This document shows positions 20,117-61,306 of a stretch of DNA of 64,000 nucleotides, one piece after another. The stretch's first letter is position 1. Each line of letters begins with the position of its first letter. Both the position numbers and the translations under genes were made by a program. The stretch is taken from NCBI GenBank assembly GCA_018655525.1, contig JABIJM010000008.1:20836-84835 (forward strand), written 5' to 3'. Under the pieces are notes generated by a model that saw only the letters and a program-made list of their open reading frames with translations, did no database searches and was not told the origin of the DNA. This DNA is from Candidatus Woesearchaeota archaeon. GTDB taxonomy: Archaea; Nanobdellota; Nanobdellia; Woesearchaeales; GW2011-AR9.

Positions 20117-21451
20117 ATGCCAATTGAAATTTGTACAATCGGAGGGTTCTCCAAAACTGAAGGAAATTCTGTTGCAATTAAAGTTGATGACGAAGTTGTT
20201 CTATTAGATATGGGTCTTTCTATGGAGAATTACATTAAACATCAAGAAGATCGTGAAGATGTTAGAGCCGAGAAAACATATAAAGAGTTAATTAAAGTTG
20301 AAGCCGTTCCTAATTATAGTCATATCAAAGATTGGATGGACAAAGTAGTTGTAATTGCACCTTCACATGGGCATTTAGATCATGTTGGTGCTATCCCTTT
20401 TGCTGCTTCATTGTTTCCAAAAGCGACAGTTGTATCCACGCCTTACACAATTGAAATTTTAAGAGCAATTTTGAAAGATGAACGGATTAATTTGCCAAAT
20501 GAAATTGTTTCTATTAAATTAAATGGAACTTACAAAGTTTCAGATAAAATCACATTAGAATTTGTAGAGATGACACATTCTATCCCACATACTGCAACAA
20601 TTGTGGTTCATACACCATATGGGAAGATTGCATATGCGAATGATTTCAAGTTAGATCATACACCCGTAATTGGAAAACCGCCTAATATGGATCGGTTAAA
20701 GGCAATTGGAAAGGAAGGTGTTGATGTTATGTTCATGGATTGTTTGTACGCAGATACACATATCCATACACCTTCAGAAAAAGTCGCGAAACAATTATTG
20801 CAAGATGTGATGCTTGGTACAGAATCACAAGGAAAGGCAATGATTGTGACAACATTCTCTTCACAGATATCACGATTAAAAAGTATTATTGAAATGGGCA
20901 AGAAGTTAAATAGGAAAATTGTATTTTTAGGAAGATCTCTTAATAAATATGTTACAGCTGCTGAAAAAATTAATTTGGTAAAATTTACACAAGATGTGAA
21001 AATGTATAGTAGAAGACATGAAGTTGAGAAAATTCTTCGTAAGATTCAAAAGGAAGGACCTGACAAATATTTGATTGTATGTACAGGCCATCAAGGTGAA
21101 CCTAGAGCTATATTGTCTCGGATAGTAAAAGGAGAGCTAGATTACAAATTGAAGGATGGAGATATTGTTATATTTTCTTGTAGAGTTATTCCGGTTGAAA
21201 CAAATATTAGACATAGAGCAAAGTTAGATTCTGATTTGAAGAAGAAAGGTGTACGTATCTTTAAAGATGTACATGTTTCTGGTCACGGTGCTTTAGAAGA
21301 TCATAGAGATCTGTTAGAATGCGTGAGACCTAAATTGTTTATGCCAATCCATGCAGAGCCTGCAAAGGCAAGAATGTTGATAGATTTTGCGAAGCCGCTT
21401 GGTTTTAAAGGGAAAGGTATGATTGATGGCGGAAGGTTTGTTGTTAAATAA
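20117..21451 (+). CDS. rnj: RNase J-like beta-CASP ribonuclease (metallo-beta-lactamase fold)
   Basis: MBL motif SHGHLDHVGAIP. 444 aa with beta-CASP architecture, typical of archaeal RNase J. Confidence 0.75.
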   Translation: MPIEICTIGGFSKTEGNSVAIKVDDEVVLLDMGLSMENYIKHQEDREDVRAEKTYKELIKVEAVPNYSHIKDWMDKVVVIAPSHGHLDHVGAIPFAASLFPKATVVSTPYTIEILRAILKDERINLPNEIVSIKLNGTYKVSDKITLEFVEMTHSIPHTATIVVHTPYGKIAYANDFKLDHTPVIGKPPNMDRLKAIGKEGVDVMFMDCLYADTHIHTPSEKVAKQLLQDVMLGTESQGKAMIVTTFSSQISRLKSIIEMGKKLNRKIVFLGRSLNKYVTAAEKINLVKFTQDVKMYSRRHEVEKILRKIQKEGPDKYLIVCTGHQGEPRAILSRIVKGELDYKLKDGDIVIFSCRVIPVETNIRHRAKLDSDLKKKGVRIFKDVHVSGHGALEDHRDLLECVRPKLFMPIHAEPAKARMLIDFAKPLGFKGKGMIDGGRFVVK

Positions 21452-35644: not shown

Positions 35645-36133
35645 TTATTCTACAATAATCTTTCCTTTCATACTGCCATGGCCTTCGCCACAAAATACAT
35701 TGCAAGAAAATGTATGAGTTCCAAGGGTATTCGCTACGAATTCTACGGTTTTTGTTTCACCTGGATTGAATTTAACATCAACATCAAATTCCTTTAATGA
35801 AATGCCGTGTGTAACATCTTCACTTGTAATTGTTAATTTAACGTTATCTCCTTTCTTTACTTTGATTTCTGAAGGGATAAATTCCCATTTCTTTGCAACC
35901 ATTGAAATTTCAACTACATTATAGTCCTCCGGCGGAATTAAAGGTTCTTCCATTTCATTTACTTCTTCTACAACCGTTTCTTTAGTATCTTCGTTTCCTT
36001 CTGTTGGCATTTCCGTTGTTGTGGGCTCTTCTGGCATTTCATAATCTGGAAAAGATGTTTCTTGACAACCTGAAATAACAAAAGAAAGAACCATAATAAT
36101 TCCAATTAAAATTACATTTATTTTTTTCATCAT
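35645..36133 (-). CDS. CuA-type cupredoxin lipoprotein (cytochrome oxidase subunit II-like domain)
   Basis: Lipobox ISGCQ. CuA ligand pattern H...C.VFCGEGH..M (VTHGISL ... FSCNVFCGEGHGSMKG). Confidence 0.6.
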   Translation of the reverse strand: MMKKINVILIGIIMVLSFVISGCQETSFPDYEMPEEPTTTEMPTEGNEDTKETVVEEVNEMEEPLIPPEDYNVVEISMVAKKWEFIPSEIKVKKGDNVKLTITSEDVTHGISLKEFDVDVKFNPGETKTVEFVANTLGTHTFSCNVFCGEGHGSMKGKIIVE

Positions 36134-36194: not shown

Positions 36195-36830
36195 TTAACA
36201 ATGAACTCCCTTTTCAATTCTTCCAGAAGTCAAATCAACTGTAAATAATCCTTCATTTTCTTGGGAACAAAGAAATTCTTTGCTACCTTCATTATTTTTA
36301 ATTGTTTCATAATAAGTATGTTTCATAAATCCGATTTTTTTCTCTGATTTCGCACATTTTTGGAACTTTAATTCTGAAAGGATATACATCTCATAAGTTC
36401 CATGGTGCGCTTTGTCTTGTCCAATTTTATTTAAGCAAGTCAATTCGTCTCTAAAATTAGAATCTTCATCTGATGCTGCAAGTTGTACAGCAAATGATGA
36501 ATCTGAAAGTAACCTATAAGGAGGTTTTTGTTCATACATTTTTGTGATTTCTTCAATAAAATTTATTTCGTCTGCAATTTCCCCGGCTATTGCCTTTACA
36601 CCTAATTTTGTTTCTAATGTTAATAATGTTGGTTGCTCTAAATAGACATATGTTTGAAATGAGTTTGGATAAAGATTTTGTAAATTTTCAGAATAATCTT
36701 GTGTTTGAATAGAAATTGCTGCGCCGGTTAAATTTTCAACACCATCTAGTGTTAGAAATAAAGATACAACGAGAAATGCAATAACTAAAATACTATAAAA
36801 CTTTAATTTTTCAACATCTTGCTTTCCCAT
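36195..36830 (-). CDS. Membrane-anchored hypothetical protein
   Basis: N-terminal TM anchor. 211 aa. Confidence 0.4.
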   Translation of the reverse strand: MGKQDVEKLKFYSILVIAFLVVSLFLTLDGVENLTGAAISIQTQDYSENLQNLYPNSFQTYVYLEQPTLLTLETKLGVKAIAGEIADEINFIEEITKMYEQKPPYRLLSDSSFAVQLAASDEDSNFRDELTCLNKIGQDKAHHGTYEMYILSELKFQKCAKSEKKIGFMKHTYYETIKNNEGSKEFLCSQENEGLFTVDLTSGRIEKGVHC

Positions 36831-36864: not shown

Positions 36865-37260
36865 TTATCCTAATACCTTATTTCTAATAATAGAACTTTT
36901 ATGTTGATGTGTTTTGTATGGTTGTCCACGTAATACGGGTAAATTAAATTTTTCTTTTAATAATTTTTCAATTGGAGGATGATCATATCCTAAAAAAATG
37001 ATGTCTGGTTTTTTTTCTTCAATAATTTTAAAATGATCTTCTTGATTTCCTAAAACCGCTTCATCTACTATTTTTAAACTTGAGATTAGTTGTAACCGTT
37101 CATGTTCGCAGAATGCAATGTCTTTTTGTTCTTGTTTTTTAGTGGAATCTCTGGCTAAAACAACAATCAGATAATCGCCATGATTTTTTGCTTGTGTAAA
37201 ATAATCTAAATGGCCAATATGTAATAAATCAAATGTTCCAAAACATATTACTTTTTTCAT
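36865..37260 (-). CDS. ribL: Cytidylyltransferase-fold nucleotidyltransferase, archaeal FAD synthetase RibL-like
   Basis: GTFDLLHIGH (HxGH). Collinear with M. jannaschii RibL (VLARD, FLGYDH, LRGQPYK). Overlaps the downstream gene by 4 nt. Confidence 0.6.
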   Translation of the reverse strand: MKKVICFGTFDLLHIGHLDYFTQAKNHGDYLIVVLARDSTKKQEQKDIAFCEHERLQLISSLKIVDEAVLGNQEDHFKIIEEKKPDIIFLGYDHPPIEKLLKEKFNLPVLRGQPYKTHQHKSSIIRNKVLG

Positions 37261-39305
37261 TTGTCTGTTAATTTAGCTTTATGAATTATTAATCTTCCGG
37301 AACAAGATGAATCCATCACAATCTCTGTGTCTAAAAGTTCTATCTTTTTATTGAATAATGGACAATCCAACACAAGAGATTCAAATTCTCCGCCTTCACC
37401 ATTTACCATAATTCCTTTTATATTGTTTAATTTATGTAATGTGTCTTCAGTTACAATTTGATTTAACCAAGAATCATCAAATCCGTCTGCAGCTACTGCA
37501 GACAAGACAAATGTAAATTTCTGTTGTAATAGTTCTTTCATTTCTTGTGCTGGGTCCTTGTGCCATAATGGAGAAAATATTTTTAATCCCAATTTGTCAC
37601 AAATTTTTTCTATACGGTCTCGTTGGTATGTTGAAAATACTGCGCCGGAAACCACACCTTCAATTTTGTATGTGTCTTTCGCATTCTGTAATGCTAACTC
37701 TAAATCTTGAAGTTCTGTTTCTTTTTCCCCTTCTGTTTCTTGCTCTATTAAAGATAAATTCATTGCTTCTGCTTGTAATTCAACCATATTGACAGATGCT
37801 GTTTGAAACATATAAGAATCTGGATTTTTTGATTTCATAGTAATTAAACATGTTAAATCATAATTCTGTCGTTTCATAATATGTGCTGAGTAACATGAAT
37901 CTTTACCAGAGCTGAATAAGACGCCTAATTTGACATTATGTGAAGGATAAAATTGTTTCAAGTATTCGGATTTTGATTTTTGTTCTTGTTTTGCAAGTTT
38001 CCCTAATGCAAAATCAAATTTGCTTCCATATTGTGCAGCTGTTTTCTTTCTGAATGCAAATTCTTTAGAAATTCCTTTGGATTGTGCAATGTCACGAAGT
38101 ATGAATTTTGCCGTTTCTTCTTTGATTTTATGTTCTTCTGGAATTTTAAGAGAAAATTTTGCTAAATTTCTATCTAAGAATGGTAAACGTAATTCCATAT
38201 TTTGATCCATTGTGATTACATCATCTCTGTATAAATCGCGTTCATACATTTTTAATAAGCCTGAAACACATTCTTGATTGATGTTTGCAGATTTTTTATG
38301 ACGATCATATCCTGCAAAAATTTCTTCAGAACCAAGACCAGAGAAGATTACCTTACATCCATCTTCTTTTGCAAGTTCACATGCAAGATAGAAAGTTAAC
38401 GCAACACCTACTTTCACAACGTTAGAATCTTCAATTAAAGGAACGATTTTTTCTAAGTAAGGTTTGATTTCTTCAATGGTTACTTTTTTAATCTTTAATT
38501 TTAAACCTAATTCTTTTGCAACTGCTTGTGCTGCAACGAGATCTGAAGGATCTTTATTTTCCGTATCTAAAACTGCCGTGTAACAAGTGAAATCGTAGTT
38601 ATTGTCCTTAAAATGTTTTGCAAGGAACGTTGAATCAATACCTCCAGAGAATAATAAGCCAAATTTTTGGTTTGGAATTCGTTTTTCAATTGCTTCGCTA
38701 AGTAATGTTTCTGTTTGTTGTTTTAATTCTTCATAAGATTCTTGATGTTCAGGGAAGTATGTTACAAATGTCCTATTCTTGAAAGATATTTCTTTTGTTT
38801 CTATGTTATATGAAAGAATACTTCGAGGATTTAATTCTTGTATGTCAATATAACCGAGTTTTTCCAATACTTTCTTTTCTGATGCAAATGCAAATTGATC
38901 TCTATTATGAATGAACCACAAAGGTTTTACACCAAATAAATCTCGTGCCAAAATTACAATGTCATCTTTGATGTATGCAAATGCAAATACGCCATCTAAT
39001 TCTTCTATATGATGATTTTGATCTAAGAATTTTAATACAAGTTCTGCATCATTTTGCGCATTGAGATTATATTTTTGTGATAATTCTTTCCAATTATAAA
39101 TTTCGCAGTTTGCAGTAAGGATTCCTCCTTCTTGTAACGGTTGTGGCACATGATTGACAACTGCGTGTAAAGTATGTCCAATGACTCCTTCTTTAAGTTC
39201 TAAGATTTTAGAAGCATCTTTTCCCCTATTTTTAAGAATAGCTAACGCTGTTTCTACTTGTTGTTTAGCCTGTTCATGATGAAATATTCCTATGATGCCA
39301 CACAT
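37257..39305 (-). CDS. Asparagine synthetase-like glutamine amidotransferase fused to a C-terminal Dph6/MJ0570-like PP-loop ATPase domain
   Basis: N-terminal Ntn Cys (MCGIIGI), AsnB PP-loop SGGIDS, then a second PP-loop SSGKDSCYSAHIM...EGVVSGAVFSTYQRDRIEKICDKLGLKIFSPLW...GEGGEFESLVLDCPLF, typical of diphthine-ammonia ligase-family proteins. Confidence 0.7.
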   Translation of the reverse strand: MCGIIGIFHHEQAKQQVETALAILKNRGKDASKILELKEGVIGHTLHAVVNHVPQPLQEGGILTANCEIYNWKELSQKYNLNAQNDAELVLKFLDQNHHIEELDGVFAFAYIKDDIVILARDLFGVKPLWFIHNRDQFAFASEKKVLEKLGYIDIQELNPRSILSYNIETKEISFKNRTFVTYFPEHQESYEELKQQTETLLSEAIEKRIPNQKFGLLFSGGIDSTFLAKHFKDNNYDFTCYTAVLDTENKDPSDLVAAQAVAKELGLKLKIKKVTIEEIKPYLEKIVPLIEDSNVVKVGVALTFYLACELAKEDGCKVIFSGLGSEEIFAGYDRHKKSANINQECVSGLLKMYERDLYRDDVITMDQNMELRLPFLDRNLAKFSLKIPEEHKIKEETAKFILRDIAQSKGISKEFAFRKKTAAQYGSKFDFALGKLAKQEQKSKSEYLKQFYPSHNVKLGVLFSSGKDSCYSAHIMKRQNYDLTCLITMKSKNPDSYMFQTASVNMVELQAEAMNLSLIEQETEGEKETELQDLELALQNAKDTYKIEGVVSGAVFSTYQRDRIEKICDKLGLKIFSPLWHKDPAQEMKELLQQKFTFVLSAVAADGFDDSWLNQIVTEDTLHKLNNIKGIMVNGEGGEFESLVLDCPLFNKKIELLDTEIVMDSSCSGRLIIHKAKLTDK

Positions 39306-39393
39306 AGGTGACTATTTGGAGGGATTTTTTATAAAGATATAGACAAAAACAGTTCATTTTTGTGTTGTAGAGAATCTAAGTGTTTATTAAATT

Positions 39394-39936
39394 GTGAACG
39401 TCAATAATATTATGGTTGAAGATCAATTATCCTTATTAGATTACAAGCCGCCAGTGCAAGGACAATTATTTGATCATAGAAATCTTCCCACAGAAGTTTC
39501 GGATAAACCTCCATGGAGATTAGGGTCATTTGAAGGAAGAATAGAAGTGTATGCTGTTGAAGATTATTATACTGAATTATGTAGGAAGGAATTAGATAGA
39601 ACTAAGCGATTTCTTTTAGGAAACAAGGTTGAAGAATCACATGCACCACTTACCCATCAACCTTTATATCTAGACGAACGTGTATATGGATTACGCTTTA
39701 TTGGATCTGGCGAAGCAAAGAATTACAAAACTACAAGATCTTTAGCACAGGCATTGAAAAAATTTAATTTCTTGAAAGATGGAATCAGATGGAGGCATCC
39801 TTATGGTAAAGACACATTGTTAGAAGAATCCCGTGGTCAAATTGTTGCAAAATGGACCCCTAGAAAAGATCATGTTAGAGTTAAATGTTATCTTACGATT
39901 GATGAAATTTTGGAGATTGAAGGTTTTCTAATCTAA
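39394..39936 (+). CDS. Hypothetical protein
   Basis: 180 aa, no motif. Confidence 0.4.
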   Translation: MNVNNIMVEDQLSLLDYKPPVQGQLFDHRNLPTEVSDKPPWRLGSFEGRIEVYAVEDYYTELCRKELDRTKRFLLGNKVEESHAPLTHQPLYLDERVYGLRFIGSGEAKNYKTTRSLAQALKKFNFLKDGIRWRHPYGKDTLLEESRGQIVAKWTPRKDHVRVKCYLTIDEILEIEGFLI

Positions 39937-41028
39937 ATGTAATTCTACGATATCTCCGTCTTTTAATTTATGTACTAACCTGCTAAACCTTTGTCCTGGG
40001 TGTTTCGCGGATTTTCCCCAGACACGTGCAAACCGAAATCGTTTTACAAAATCTTTATGTGTTTTCAAACAAACATCTTTCAACGAGGATTTAGTTTGAA
40101 GAATCATTGGCTCATTCATATCTGCTTCTTTACGAGGTTCTTTCATATAAATACGCATGAAATCTAGTTTGTCAAAAATCATATCTTTAAGTTCATCAAT
40201 TCCAACATTATTATGTGCTGAGAGCACAAGGTCTGCACCAATTTGTTTTTTTACTTTCCTGATTTGTGCGGCTGTTGCCATATCTCCTTTTGTTAGACAA
40301 ATAATAGCGGGAACATATTTTTTATTACTTTCAATACAATCAATAAATTGGTCCATGTTTATGGGACTTCTAATTAAGACATCTGCGTTTACAATTTTAA
40401 ATTCACGCATGATATCTTTAATTGTAGCATTATCAATTTCTGTTTTCACAGTTCTTCCAATTTGAATACCTCCAGTTCCTTTCTTTTTGATATAGACTTC
40501 TGGCTTTCTTTGATTTAAACGAATGTTTGCTTCTCTTACTTCTCTAATGATTGCAGGGTAATGTTCTGGTGTTGTAACATCAACAACAATTAAAACTAAA
40601 TCTGCGTTTTGAATTACAGTAAGTACTTCTCTTCCACGTCCTTTTCCAGAAGCTGCACCACTTACAATTCCTGGAACATCTAAAATTTGAATTTTTGCTT
40701 GTTTATAATTTAACATTCCAGGTACAACTGAAAGAGTTGTGAAGGCATATGCACCAACTTCAGATTCTGCACCCGTGATGACATTTAATAGGGTTGATTT
40801 TCCTGCTGAAGGAAATCCTAAAAGAAGAACGGTTCCATCTCCACTTTTTCTTACAGTGTAACCATAAGATGAAGATCCAGTTTTCTTAGAAGTACGTTGA
40901 TCTTGCTTTCCTTTAAGCATAGCGATCTTTGCTTTAAGTTTACCAATGTGACCTTGTGTAGCTTTATTGTACTTGGTCTTTTTGATTTCGTCCTCTATAT
41001 CTTTGATTTGTTTCTTATAATCAACCAT
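39928..41028 (-). CDS. DRG-family (Obg-like) GTPase with a C-terminal TGS domain
   Basis: G1 GFPSAGKST, G3 DVPG, G4 TKGD. C-terminal TGS-like region. Confidence 0.8.
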   Translation of the reverse strand: MVDYKKQIKDIEDEIKKTKYNKATQGHIGKLKAKIAMLKGKQDQRTSKKTGSSSYGYTVRKSGDGTVLLLGFPSAGKSTLLNVITGAESEVGAYAFTTLSVVPGMLNYKQAKIQILDVPGIVSGAASGKGRGREVLTVIQNADLVLIVVDVTTPEHYPAIIREVREANIRLNQRKPEVYIKKKGTGGIQIGRTVKTEIDNATIKDIMREFKIVNADVLIRSPINMDQFIDCIESNKKYVPAIICLTKGDMATAAQIRKVKKQIGADLVLSAHNNVGIDELKDMIFDKLDFMRIYMKEPRKEADMNEPMILQTKSSLKDVCLKTHKDFVKRFRFARVWGKSAKHPGQRFSRLVHKLKDGDIVELHLD

Positions 41029-57177: not shown

Positions 57178-58869
57178 TTAAAATCGTAAAACTTTAACCT
57201 CCCTTGTTTTGAGATTTACTACTGGAACTCGTCCGGGTTCTGGTTCATGACCTAATTTTTCTTGGAAGGAGGTCATACTTTGCCAACAACTTCCACTAAT
57301 CATTGTAATTCCTTTATAATTAGCAACAGAAGAATAATGGATATGTCCGGTAATTAAAAAATCTGGTACTTTTTTAATCAGTAAAGGATCTTCTTTATGG
57401 CCTGGATAATAAGGAGTTGATGTAAATGATGGAGCCATATGCCTTCGTTTAAGAAGGAATTTCATTATTAAGTCAGCTCTTTTATATCCTCCTCCATTTC
57501 GTATTGATTCTACATTTGCAACATAATAATCAAAACTATATCCATGATACATTTGAACATTAAATCCTTCAAAATCCTTTGTTTTTCCAATATTAATCAA
57601 TGCAGGATTTGTCACTAATTCTACATTTGGCAGTTCAAATAATCCTGGAACAAATTGTTGATAAAGTACAGGTTGAGGTTCAGCTAAATGTACAAGATCA
57701 TGGTTGCCTGGACAGATTATAATAGGAATGTGTGAAGGAATTCCTTTGATTAATTCTACAAATTTTTGATATTGTCCTTCAATTGTGGTGATAAATAATT
57801 CTTCTTCATGTCCAGGATAAATTCCAACACCATCTACTACATCTCCTGCAATGAAAATGTATTTTAAGTTACGTGCAATGTTTCGTTGTGCTTCGTTCCC
57901 TACATTTCCATTCGTCCATTCTATAAATTTTTTAAATGGTTCTTCTAAAAAATATTTTGAACCAACATGAATATCTGATAAAAAAATAACATGTTCTTCT
58001 TCTGGTCCTTTTTTCATAACATTAGTTGAAGGAATGTCAGGCCAGACTACATTTTCTGCAAAAATAATTTTATCACCCGTTACTCCTGAAATTCCAACTA
58101 CCTCGTCATAAACAAGGTCTTTACCATCTAAAAAAAGATCTTTTTTATTTTTTGAAATAAGAACTTTAATTTTTCCAGTGAAGTCTTCTAACGTCAACAT
58201 CAAATTTCCATTCTTTGTTTCACCAATTTCTTCGACAATCCCGATGATAGAAACATTTTCTCGTTCTTTTTTTTCAAGAACTCTACTTATAGAAAGCATA
58301 TTTTTTAATTCTTGTCTATTTCTGAGTATGTTTTCTAAAAACTTAAATCGCGATGTAAAGAAATGAGTGAAATCTGCAACTGTAAATTTGTGAGGTTTAT
58401 TTTCATAAGAAATTATAATTGTAACTGCTGAAGAGGGCTGAACAATATTTTGTGGTGACAATTCTAATTCTAAATGTTCTTTTTCTTTAAGTTCTTCAGG
58501 AGTGCCTAGATTTGTTTTTTGTGTATCTTCTAATTCAACTTCTAAACTACTGACATCTTGGTTACTTTTATGTTGAGGGACATCAATTGAAAGAGTTGAT
58601 GTTTTGAAACTCTGTAATTGAGATTGGTAAATGTCGTCATTTCTATCTTTTTCAGAATTTACACGCATTTCATCTACTTCATGCCAATCAACAAGTGAAG
58701 ATTCTTGTTTGATGACATCTACATAATCATCATTAAGTACTATTAAATCAGATTCTGTTTCTAATTTTTGACGTAAATTTTTGTCAAGGCCTTTTTGAAG
58801 TAGTTCTTCATTTAGTAAGATCCCTTTTTCGAACATTTCTTCTATTAATTTTTCACGGCTCGTTGTCAT
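57178..58869 (-). CDS. polB: DNA polymerase II (PolD) small subunit DP1
   Basis: C-terminal calcineurin-like phosphoesterase motifs (GDVVDGVG, GNHD, GHIH). N-terminal OB region. Confidence 0.85.
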   Translation of the reverse strand: MTTSREKLIEEMFEKGILLNEELLQKGLDKNLRQKLETESDLIVLNDDYVDVIKQESSLVDWHEVDEMRVNSEKDRNDDIYQSQLQSFKTSTLSIDVPQHKSNQDVSSLEVELEDTQKTNLGTPEELKEKEHLELELSPQNIVQPSSAVTIIISYENKPHKFTVADFTHFFTSRFKFLENILRNRQELKNMLSISRVLEKKERENVSIIGIVEEIGETKNGNLMLTLEDFTGKIKVLISKNKKDLFLDGKDLVYDEVVGISGVTGDKIIFAENVVWPDIPSTNVMKKGPEEEHVIFLSDIHVGSKYFLEEPFKKFIEWTNGNVGNEAQRNIARNLKYIFIAGDVVDGVGIYPGHEEELFITTIEGQYQKFVELIKGIPSHIPIIICPGNHDLVHLAEPQPVLYQQFVPGLFELPNVELVTNPALINIGKTKDFEGFNVQMYHGYSFDYYVANVESIRNGGGYKRADLIMKFLLKRRHMAPSFTSTPYYPGHKEDPLLIKKVPDFLITGHIHYSSVANYKGITMISGSCWQSMTSFQEKLGHEPEPGRVPVVNLKTREVKVLRF

Positions 58870-60065
58870 AGTTGTAATTCTTTTTCTAACATTTCTTTAA
58901 GTTTGATGATAATTCCTTCTTCTAATGAAAGATTGATTTCTCGAGTTCTCCCATAGCGTCCTTTAGAAATAATTTTTGCATTGATAATTCCAAGCATATC
59001 CAATTCTGCCAAAATATCTGAAACACGGCGTTGTGTTAAGATATTAAGATTAGATTTTTTACATAATGTCCCATAAATTTCATAAATTTCTCCTGTAAAA
59101 AATTGACGTTTCTGAGGACTAATCAACATGATTGCAAATAATACTAATTTAAACTGGCGTGGCTGATTCATTGCAGCGCTAATAAGTTTGTCAGATTCTA
59201 CTTTTCTTTCTGCAGCATCTAAATGTGTAATTTCAACTTGTCGTGAACCACTTCTCTCTGCTATTTCTCCTGCAACACGTAATAAATCTATTGCTCTTCT
59301 TACATCTCCATGTTCACGGGCTGCATAAGCTGAACATTTTTCAATTACACCTGTTTGAACAGTACCATCATTAAATGCAGAATTTGAACGGTTTCGTAAA
59401 ATTTCTTGAATTTGTAGAGCATTGTAAGGTGGAAAAATGATGTCTTCTTCCGAAAGACTACTTTTCACACGTGGATCTAAATTTTCTGCGAATATTAAAT
59501 TGTTAGAAATTCCAATTAAACAAATTTGTGAGTTTTTTAATTCTGCATTAATTCTCGTTAAATTGTAAAGAACTTCATCACCAATTTTTTTTGTTAATTG
59601 ATCTATCTCATCAAGAATAAGAAGAATAACTTGTTTTTCTTGGTCTAATAATTTGTAAAAGATATTATAAATTTCATCTGTTGGTAAACCTGTGGAAGGA
59701 ACATCCCTTCCAAAACTCTTGATTAATTGTGAAATTAGTCTATATTCTGTATCTGCTACACGTTTTAATTTACAATTTACATAGATTGGTTTTAACGCAA
59801 TGTTATTTTTAACTGCAATCTCCTTCATAGAATTCACAATACTTTTCATTGAAAGAGTTTTTCCAGTACCTGTTTTTCCATAAATAAACAAATTAGAAGG
59901 TTTTTCATTTCTAAGGGCAGGTGCTAGAATGTTTGCTGCTTCACTCATTTGTTCTTCTCGATAAATAACATTCTCTGGCATATAAGAAGATAGTAAAACA
60001 TTCTTATCTCTAAAAAAAGAATCCTGTTTAAGGTAATTTTCAAAAAAGTTATTGATTCCAGACAT
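58866..60065 (-). CDS. cdc6: Orc1/Cdc6 replication initiator
   Basis: AAA+ Walker A GKTGTGKT, Walker B LILDEID, C-terminal winged helix. The start codon directly abuts an ORB element. Confidence 0.85.
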   Translation of the reverse strand: MSGINNFFENYLKQDSFFRDKNVLLSSYMPENVIYREEQMSEAANILAPALRNEKPSNLFIYGKTGTGKTLSMKSIVNSMKEIAVKNNIALKPIYVNCKLKRVADTEYRLISQLIKSFGRDVPSTGLPTDEIYNIFYKLLDQEKQVILLILDEIDQLTKKIGDEVLYNLTRINAELKNSQICLIGISNNLIFAENLDPRVKSSLSEEDIIFPPYNALQIQEILRNRSNSAFNDGTVQTGVIEKCSAYAAREHGDVRRAIDLLRVAGEIAERSGSRQVEITHLDAAERKVESDKLISAAMNQPRQFKLVLFAIMLISPQKRQFFTGEIYEIYGTLCKKSNLNILTQRRVSDILAELDMLGIINAKIISKGRYGRTREINLSLEEGIIIKLKEMLEKELQL

Positions 60066-60066
60066 A

Positions 60067-60089
60067 GTGACCCCCCTATTTCCTATGGA
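60067..60089 (-). promoter_or_regulatory. ORB element 1 (origin recognition box)
   Basis: The minus strand reads TCCATAGGAAATAGGGGGGTCAC, matching the archaeal ORB pattern of a TCCAnnGGAAA dyad plus a G-string. Confidence 0.6.
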
Positions 60090-60471
60090 AAAATGTTTTT
60101 TGGTGAAAATGATCGTGCAACAAGAGTGTGTTGTGCAATCAGATCTTTGTTCGTTGTTGTTTGATTATGTTAAATTTCAATGTTAAATGTAGTTTTGAAC
60201 CACTCTTTCCCATAACCTACATTTCTGATGGAAACAATCCTATAAATAGTTATCGTTAGTAGGATTGGATGGTAACAGAATCTAGTATTAAGTATACTGT
60301 GAAGGAACATGTAGAGTGGAATTCATATTATTAAGTTTAAATCAAAGCAAAATAAATCAATTTAAGGGAGGTAAGATCATTTGTAAGGTAATTAAACAAT
60401 TTTAAGAATAAATTATATTATAAGGAAATTAAGAAGAGTTTAGATAATGTTACTCTTATTACACATATCCT

Positions 60472-60730
60472 TTATTATTATTATTATTATTTAGATATAA
60501 ATTTATTATATATATATAAGATAAATAAAAACATTGATTGGAATAACCTTTGAAATCTTCTTTAAAACTTAGAAAATTAAAATGAACTTTTTCACTTTAA
60601 AATCAATCAAAAAAAACAAAATCTTCAAAAACTTTTGTCGTCGTTAATTTATTATTATCTATATTGAAAATATATTATATATATATATATATAGTTATAT
60701 AATAATAATAATAATAATAAGAAGAAGAGA
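60472..60730. repeat. Cluster of simple-sequence repeats inside the origin region: (TTA)n, (AT)n, (AAT)n
   Basis: ttattattattattattatt at about 60472-60491, atatatatata at about 60508-60518, (at)8 at about 60677-60692, (aat)7 at about 60700-60720. Confidence 0.6.
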
Positions 60731-60928
60731 ATGAGTTAAGTGAATAAAATAAATGATGTTTAGGTTTACTTTCTTTTGAATTTAAGTTTAATGGTTATTT
60801 CTATTTGAAGTTAAGTGGGTATCTCTCTTAACTCAAATCATTTTTGATATTTCATTTGTTTTACTCATAACGAATGTGTTAAGCGCAATTCCTTTCTCTT
60901 TGAAACATAATTCTACTTAAAATAATTC

Positions 60929-60953
60929 TCCATGAGAAACGGTGGTCTGTGAC
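60929..60953 (+). promoter_or_regulatory. Degenerate ORB-like element 3
   Basis: TCCATGAGAAACGGTGGTCTGTGAC. Confidence 0.4.
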
Positions 60954-61079
60954 CTTTTATTACATTTAATCCATATTATTTTTGATTAACATATGGATTA
61001 TAATTGTTTAGGTATGTTTTATTTTAATAGATATCTTTTTTATCTTTTTTATACTTATTTTTTTCTGAATTATTAAATC

Positions 61080-61102
61080 TCCATAGGAAATGAAGGGGTC
61101 AC
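61080..61102 (+). promoter_or_regulatory. ORB element 2
   Basis: TCCATAGGAAATGAAGGGGTCAC. An inverted copy of ORB1 with 20 of 23 nt identical. Confidence 0.6.
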
Positions 61103-61306
61103 ACTCATATGGCATGTTCATTTAACATTAATGTTCATATTACAAAATATAGTTTTGTGAATGTTTAAAAATTAAGTGTGTTAACTGCAATGCCCTTTAT
61201 TAGAGGAGAATAAGGGGGAATTACATTTATTTAATTATTTAATGTAGTTCATTTTAGGTTAAACTCAAATCCGAAGTTTTAAATACCTTTATCTTATTGG
61301 AATTGT

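Follow-up and report, generated by a model that had tools for sequence, protein, structure and literature searches.

The stretch of DNA analysed here, which we call the window, spans 64,000 nt (positions 20,836 to 84,835 of the forward strand of contig JABIJM010000008.1, from the metagenome-assembled genome (MAG) GCA_018655525.1 of a Candidatus Woesearchaeota archaeon) and carries on its minus strand a gene that joins a glutaminase, an asparagine-synthetase-like domain and a diphthamide-synthesis domain in a single protein. The open reading frame (ORF) runs from ATG to TGA and encodes, from N to C terminus, a glutaminase with an N-terminal nucleophile (Ntn) cysteine (module G), an AsnB-type PP-loop synthetase (module A) and a complete Dph6 domain (module D) (Table 1). 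The initial annotation, made from the sequence, had proposed this three-module architecture, and the domain scan bears it out: Pfam places GATase_7 at residues 54–148 (64.9 bits), Asn_synthase at residues 199–341 plus a second stretch (140.8 bits), and Diphthami_syn_2 at residues 459–677 (profile positions 2–217 of 219; 193.6 bits). The motifs it quoted are also present, with MCGI at the N-terminus, SGGIDS at residues 220–225, SSGKDS at 465–470 and EGGEFE at 637–642.

At least 16 contigs, assembled from independent samples and including one of GCA_018672075.1, encode an identical protein, and more than 120 clusters match the fusion protein over its full length at 57–100% identity, so the fusion is not an assembly artefact. 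The named clusters are Woesearchaeota and Nanoarchaeota MAGs, and most carry the label “diphthine--ammonia ligase”. An AlphaFold2 (AF2) model of the full-length protein reaches a pLDDT of 88.6 and a pTM of 0.86; since D makes up one third of the chain, a pTM of this size suggests a fixed placement of D relative to G–A, and the linker between A and D is short and conserved across the family. For Methanohalophilus mahii, Methanosalsum zhilinae and Ca. Nanosalinarum the same architecture has been on record since 2012 (de Crécy-Lagard et al., Biol Direct 7:32; PMC3541065). Those authors proposed that the class-II glutamine amidotransferase (GAT-II) domain gives ammonia to both PP-loop domains, and a reviewer of their paper wanted to know which of the two consumes it and what role the asparagine-synthetase-like one plays. 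The gene studied here is a further member of the family first noted in 2012 rather than a new architecture. The view in the initial annotation that the architecture is uncharacterised holds insofar as we found no biochemical study of the fusion in the literature searched, and a preprint on the CATH ATP-PPases does not cover it; it does not hold for the architecture as such or for the ammonia-donor idea, both of which were on record (PMC3541065). The window protein has in common with the 2012 fusions the module order GAT-II, Asn_synthase PP-loop, DUF71/Dph6, and belongs to the same protein family. It differs from them in its origin (Woesearchaeota, within DPANN) and in an intact-looking G, the G of M. 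mahii being vestigial and devoid of the Cys nucleophile. The 2012 paper gave no analysis of the active-site residues of G or A.

Table 1. Features of the fusion gene and its immediate surroundings, in window coordinates.
Feature	Coordinates	Strand	Basis
Whole gene, G–A–D fusion protein, 682 aa, GenBank “diphthine--ammonia ligase”	37257..39305	-	ORF call, Pfam, NCBIfam
G module, class-II (Ntn) glutamine amidotransferase fold, residues 1-190	38736..39305	-	Pfam, alignment
Codon of Cys2, N-terminal nucleophile	39300..39302	-	alignment
A module, AsnB-type PP-loop synthetase, short form, residues 191-455	37941..38735	-	Pfam, alignment, Foldseek
PP-loop of A, SGGIDS, residues 220-225	38631..38648	-	motif
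Residues 297-300 VKVG, aligned with human ASNS T336-T-V-R339; conserved Thr and Arg replaced	38406..38417	-	alignment
Codon of Leu324, aligned with E. coli AsnB Glu348 / human ASNS Glu-364	38334..38336	-	alignment
Residues 355-373 ERDLYRDDVITMDQNMELR, counterpart of the ASNS G/A interface and tunnel region	38187..38243	-	alignment, column comparison
D module, complete Dph6 domain, residues 456-682	37260..37940	-	Pfam, NCBIfam, alignment, Foldseek
PP-loop of D, SSGKDS, residues 465-470	37896..37913	-	motif
EGGEFE motif of D, residues 637-642 (PF0828 E183/E186/E188)	37380..37397	-	motif, alignment
Downstream 131-aa CTP_transf_like gene, ATG overlapping the TGA of the fusion gene (4-nt ATGA)	36865..37260	-	ORF, Pfam
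TATA-box-like element TTTATAAAAAA, ~25 nt 5' of the ATG	39325..39335	-	sequence inspection

Elongation factor 2 (EF-2) carries a diphthamide modification that most archaea and eukaryotes have conserved and that diphtheria toxin targets, and the source of the ammonia used in the last step of its synthesis is still discussed. Module D matches the equivalog model for archaeal Dph6 (NCBIfam TIGR03679, Dph6_archaeal) at 240.7 bits against a cut-off of 197.3, over profile positions 2–217 of 218. Its alignment with PF0828 and PH1257 covers the whole domain at 37–41% identity, and Foldseek superposes the model of the domain on the crystal structures of both proteins with a TM score of 0.94 and an rmsd of 1.3–1.6 Å. 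The residues that separate Dph6 from the DUF71-B12 subgroup (S44, Y45, E78, Y103, Q104, A149, E183, E186 and E188 in PF0828; PMC3541065) correspond to S497, Y498, E531, Y560, Q561, A606, E637, E640 and E642 of the fusion, each of them invariant or at least 90% conserved, and SSGKDS and EGGEFE are kept in all G–A–D and A–D proteins. Supplementary Table S1 of PMC3541065 lists just one DUF71 homologue each for M. mahii and M. zhilinae, whose genomes are complete, so that the fusion is the only Dph6 in these organisms; within the window we found no second Dph6- or AsnB-like sequence and no gene for AsnRS, GatCAB, Dph2, Dph5 or EF-2. The Dph6 identity that the initial annotation gave to the C-terminal PP-loop domain is upheld by the profile score, the signature residues and the superposition alike, and neither a competing stand-alone Dph6 in complete genomes that carry the fusion nor a placement of its N-terminal part among ordinary AsnB proteins was found. 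Judged by these comparisons, D is a true Dph6 and would act as the organism’s diphthine–ammonia ligase. Archaeal Dph6 normally stands alone at ~230 aa (PF0828, 3RJZ/3RK1; PH1257, 2D13), whereas here AsnB-like modules are added at its N-terminus; the extra domains of yeast Dph6, by contrast, are RidA-like and C-terminal (PMC3541065).

The residues of A and G were read by alignment to AsnB and human asparagine synthetase (ASNS; structures 1CT9 and 6GQ3) and interpreted against a study of the human enzyme (PMC6748925). The ATP site of A is retained in every architecture in which the module occurs, including the PP-loop, S322/G323, D357/R360 and K421 (E. coli Lys 449, human Lys-466); the module ends ~30 residues past Lys421, and ~100 C-terminal AsnB residues are missing. 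The aspartate site is altered. Human Glu-364 (E. coli Glu348) is replaced by Leu324, which is invariant in the close family, Thr-336 by Val297 and Arg-339 by Gly300. In human ASNS, E364A and E364Q are inactive even when ammonium is supplied, and T336I is nearly inactive at a threonine conserved in all kingdoms (PMC6748925). The NCBIfam models for asparagine synthase score the fusion below their cut-offs (TIGR01536, 251.3 bits against 267.1; NF006949, 211.2 bits against 499). An exhaustive search with the N-terminal 455 residues returned 599 representatives at E<1e-30: none of the 150 nearest has Glu at position 324, and the canonical HxRL/NGE glutaminase motifs return only among the more distant of the 599. 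By sequence, the N-terminal part of the fusion forms a clade apart from ordinary AsnB. The fold itself is kept, the G–A unit of the model superposing as a whole on AsnB (1CT9/6GQ3) with TM scores of 0.76–0.79 over both domains (Foldseek), and A is conserved at least as strongly as D, on which ground we rejected the idea that it is a decaying pseudo-domain. We regard A as something other than a canonical asparagine synthetase, and it is unlikely to make asparagine. A separate observation concerns more ordinary archaeal AsnB-like proteins, from Methanobacteriaceae, Thermococcus, Nitrososphaera and ANME-1 (L031–L034, L047–L053, P0230–P0267), which carry SGQGADE; as this motif puts Gln where human E364Q is inactive, these archaeal “asparagine synthases” may also be unconventional.

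Module G has the appearance of a glutaminase with an unusual site. The nucleophile Cys2 is kept in 119 of 120 family members, with Asn66, Glu68 and Asp86 of the glutaminase site conserved alongside it, and the whole module is strongly conserved in the DPANN proteins. Two AsnB residues are replaced in all 120 members, namely the glutamine-binding Arg (E. coli 49, human 48) by Leu46 and the oxyanion Gly75 by Cys67. Taken together, the fusion shares with AsnB and human ASNS the two-domain fold and packing, the Ntn Cys, the glutaminase Asn/Glu/Asp, the PP-loop, the ATP-site Lys, the Asp/Arg pair and the interface Glu/Arg pair, and departs from them in the replacements at Glu348/364, Thr336, Arg339, Arg49/48 and Gly75, in its short C-terminus and in its sub-cut-off scores.

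The glutaminase appears to be coupled to A and not to D, as judged from patterns of covariation with the state of G. Residues E371 and R373 correspond to human Glu-414 and Arg-416, the pair at the G/A interface of AsnB. They read “ER” in 135 of 135 proteins with an intact G, in 5 of 23 with a degenerate G and in 9 of 40 in which G is absent or cut off. We further compared alignment columns between 63 thinned proteins with intact G and 23 in which G is missing or dead, with seven A-only proteins added for the columns of A. Eight of the 41 highly conserved columns of A relax without G, six of them within residues 355–373, where E355, Y359, D362, M366, E371 and R373 are conserved solely when G is intact. 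In D only one of 48 highly conserved columns relaxes, and the change is conservative (R562 to Lys), so that across these 48 columns the comparison holds no sequence trace of a dependence of D on G. The ER pair, the relaxation of the A columns and the superposition of G–A on AsnB lead us to conclude that G is matched to A as it is in AsnB. The initial annotation had proposed that G channels ammonia to the Dph6 domain; the comparative data point to A as the recipient instead, the conservation of D being independent of G, and the route to Dph6 is further disfavoured by the vestigial G of M. mahii, where the fusion is the sole Dph6, and by the absence of G from A–D relatives. In the DPANN proteins with an intact G, ammonia may still pass from G to D.

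The fusion is one member of a large family that is conserved in DPANN archaea and in some Methanosarcinales and anaerobic methanotrophic archaea (ANME). A scan of GTDB species genomes yielded 80 loci, whose architectures were sorted by family hidden Markov models. G–A–D occurs at 26 loci, among them loci in Woesearchaeota, Nanoarchaeota, Iainarchaeota, Altiarchaeota and Nanosalina (including a complete genome) as well as in Methanolobus, Methanohalophilus, other Methanosarcinales, a Halobacteriota MAG and Methanospirareceae. A–D without a glutaminase is found at four loci (L035, L037, L040, L043), A alone, at ~300 aa, at seven (L036, L039, L041, L044, L045, L050, L054), and G–A at one (L020); we saw no G–D protein without A. 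The genes that lack G start cleanly at an ATG, their ORFs are bounded by stops and free of assembly gaps, and the flanks available for them (up to ±10 kb) contain no GAT-coding sequence. A rough neighbour-joining tree, which has no support values, places them in one sublineage in which A and A–D are interspersed. The ATP-site residues of A and the catalytic residues of D are intact in every architecture.

In several lineages G persists in a degenerate form. The M. mahii protein (P0274, 649 aa) starts MEINGKSNT…, has no Cys nucleophile and retains only the last ~75 positions of the GAT profile; in M. levihalophilus the Cys is Thr, and other lineages show Cys replaced by Ser, His or Gln, carry internal deletions or display a “CDES” signature, as do, for instance, one Methanophagales and one Halobacteriota MAG. 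In Methanosalsum natronophilum and the DPANN proteins G looks intact. As far as these sequences allow us to judge, G is dispensable and has been lost or inactivated repeatedly, and A, often joined to D, is the stable unit. Several database records were set aside in this sorting: P0121 and P0128, which look like stand-alone G–A proteins, are truncated fusions, the former ending just inside the Dph6 PP-loop and the latter in “CLLYTSPSPRDLSTSRMPSSA”, which looks like translated sequencing-adapter sequence; P0132, an SMC_N ATPase head joined to G–A–D, is probably a read-through or chimera; and the extra partners of other long representatives are start-codon extensions or insertions. Because such truncated and chimeric records can mimic stand-alone or novel architectures, the architectures above were taken from genomic loci with stop-bounded ORFs. 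The A-only proteins (for example L041:9860-10720, L044:4507-5397 and L050:1120-2019) share a ~50-residue N-terminal extension with the recurring motif “L(I/V)xExEW..I..L”, which may be a remnant of the G/A linker.

We favour the view, at a probability of roughly 55%, that two ATP-dependent PP-loop amidoligases are united in a single chain, D being Dph6 and G–A amidating a carboxylate other than that of aspartate. D would adenylate the diphthine carboxylate on EF-2 and then amidate it to give diphthamide. G would release ammonia into an internal tunnel of the AsnB type leading to the adjacent site of A, which in turn would adenylate and amidate its non-aspartate carboxylate; where G has been lost, the remaining domains would use free ammonia. 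Several points weigh against this proposal. No substrate can be named for A, and no dph2, dph5 or EF-2 family recurs beside the fusion loci to anchor its role. The column comparison is blind to tunnels lined by backbone or by variable hydrophobic residues, so a path for ammonia from G through A to D may exist. Lastly, Leu46 stands in place of the Arg that binds the glutamine carboxylate, so that the glutaminase activity we assign to G is argued from conservation and not from a canonical site.

The explanation put forward in the initial annotation, and before it in 2012, is that the protein is a glutamine-dependent diphthamide synthetase in which ammonia from G reaches Dph6; A would then act mainly as a conduit or an allosteric ATP sensor, or would share the ammonia. 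Dph6 does need ammonia, and eukaryotic Dph6 bears other candidate ammonia-generating domains (PMC3541065); G, A and D are covalently joined, with the short conserved linker and the rigid placement of D in the AF2 model (pTM 0.86) fitting such a machine, purifying selection on G in the DPANN proteins is strong, and the acceptor pocket of A, made less polar by the changes of Glu to Leu, Thr to Val and Arg to Gly, could extend a hydrophobic tunnel. We nonetheless consider this explanation unlikely. It is the interface segment of A that depends on the state of G, while D, with one conservative change in 48 columns, does not. The vestigial G of M. mahii sits in that organism’s sole Dph6, which means that a route from G to D is not needed there. 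G-less A–D fusions and A-only proteins with the same signature exist, whereas G–D proteins without A do not appear, and all forms keep in A a complete ATP/adenylation site for which a conduit would have no need.

A plainer explanation is that G–A, for all its unusual site, does function as an asparagine synthetase and that its fusion to Dph6 has no mechanistic meaning, as might follow from co-expression or from compaction of the reduced DPANN genomes. AsnB and ASNS are indeed the best matches in sequence and fold, the TIGR01536 score falls just under its cut-off, and papers on nanohaloarchaeal genomes annotate an “AsnB”, which may or may not be the fusion, among the few amino-acid biosynthesis genes. 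Yet the family has invariantly replaced residues whose mutation kills ASNS activity, it lacks the glutamine-binding Arg, and its clade is distinct from canonical AsnB; moreover, the link between A and D persists across several architectures and phyla while G decays, which a chance fusion would not predict. The active-site replacements and the recurrent A–D link together make an ordinary asparagine synthetase fused by chance decidedly unlikely. Least probable of all, and by our estimate very improbable, is that A is a non-catalytic module (an ATP-binding scaffold, or a dimerisation or EF-2 docking device) that assists Dph6 while G is a relic nearing loss: G is degenerate in several lineages, A always lies N-terminal to D and is predicted to pack rigidly against it, and the β-lactam and carbapenam synthetases are AsnB-family proteins (by Foldseek fold match) with a dead G, but the PP-loop, the Mg/ATP residues and Lys421 are kept in every architecture, including A-only proteins that have no D to assist, and the G of DPANN proteins is highly conserved and co-varies with the A interface.

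Among AsnB-family enzymes, β-lactam and carbapenam synthetases have a residue other than Glu at the position of Glu348, a non-functional G domain, and substrates other than aspartate. Their structures (1JGT and 1Q15, respectively) are fold matches of the fusion in Foldseek at 15–18% identity; these enzymes belong to bacterial secondary metabolism, form lactam rings and carry no Dph6 fusion. An analogy for the optional nature of G comes from the NAD synthetase family, described (PMC3376133) as a PP-loop amidoligase in which a fused glutaminase is optional and lineage-specific and free ammonia is an alternative; since that glutaminase has a nitrilase-like fold and the substrate is different, the comparison is one of analogy only.

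In 2012 the fusion was taken as a hint that some archaea use glutamine as the ammonia donor for diphthamide (PMC3541065). Our comparison suggests that this hint was over-read, because G is matched to A, is vestigial in M. mahii, one of the cultured methanogens cited, and is absent from the A–D and A-only proteins. The question shifts instead to A, a highly conserved module with an intact ATP site, unlikely to make asparagine, kept in very reduced archaeal genomes and repeatedly joined to Dph6; naming its substrate would define a new enzyme activity. A more specific proposal, which we advance tentatively and hold to be rather improbable, is that A is an unrecognised ATP-dependent amidoligase acting on a second carboxylate of the translation apparatus, or else that the fusion is a glutamine-dependent diphthamide synthetase working through a repurposed A pocket. 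Candidate targets of A would be EF-2 itself or another protein- or RNA-borne carboxyl group, with G as the ammonia source where present, and the G–A–D, A–D and A-only proteins would then point to a new pathway of modification with a genetic link to diphthamide synthesis. Under the other branch, which would apply to DPANN, ammonia would travel from G through the repurposed pocket of A to Dph6 along an exceptionally long tunnel. There is also a practical side to the identity of A: database labels in the family vary between “diphthine--ammonia ligase” and “asparagine synthase”, A-bearing proteins are probably mis-annotated under the latter in some records, and with labels so mixed, metabolic reconstructions of DPANN may wrongly credit these organisms with asparagine biosynthesis.

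Turning to the neighbourhood, the translational overlap with a small nucleotidyltransferase gene described in the initial annotation is real, and the name “RibL-like” fits to the extent that the best solved relative of that gene’s product, 3GLV, is an archaeal small nucleotidyltransferase, which does not by itself prove RibL identity. The adjacency is kept only in close relatives (L004–L006) and beside one A-only gene, that of L041, which is preceded by a CTP_transf_like gene. The recurring neighbours otherwise amount to a synteny block of related Woesearchaeota (a DRG-type GTPase, prefoldin, UPF0147 and an MscS-like gene), and the A-only genes of L041, L050 and L039 lie in this same block. 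Upstream of the fusion gene, the position of the TATA-box-like element suggests a leaderless transcript.

The DRG-type GTPase (MMR_HSR1 plus TGS; 39928-41028 of the window, minus strand) is found within a few genes of a G–A–D or A-only gene in 9 of 40 loci, among them L004–L006, L016, L017, L039, L041 and L050 and also Nanosalina, which is distant from Woesearchaeota; this proximity may reflect a gene order passed down by descent or else a tie to translation. Between the fusion gene and the GTPase lies a 180-aa ORF with no Pfam match (39394-39936, plus strand), with counterparts in a 174-aa gene of other contigs and a 184-aa ORF in the corresponding place of L005. Downstream of the nucleotidyltransferase gene are a 211-aa ORF, likewise without a Pfam match (36195-36830, minus strand), and a cupredoxin/COX2-like protein of 162 aa (35645-36133, minus strand), and further on, at ~26.4–32 kb, lies a group of genes for metal handling that comprises HMA, DsbD, a regulator of the HTH_5 type and a P-type ATPase.

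The window as a whole is archaeal, with PolD, Cdc6/Orc1, MCM, TBP, TFIIE, PCNA and Hjc, and ARAGORN finds no tRNA gene in its 64 kb. Beside the PolD genes, a 1.2-kb AT-rich gap (60066-61306, GC ~0.26) separates cdc6/orc1 (58866..60065, minus strand) from a SpoIIM-like gene. Within it a 23-nt inverted pair, TCCATAGGAAATGAAGGGGTCAC, at 60067-60089 and 61080-61102 flanks a core rich in (TTA)n/(TA)n at 60472-60726, an arrangement that we take to resemble archaeal origin recognition box (ORB) elements around a DNA-unwinding element. On its sequence features, this gap is a probable replication origin.

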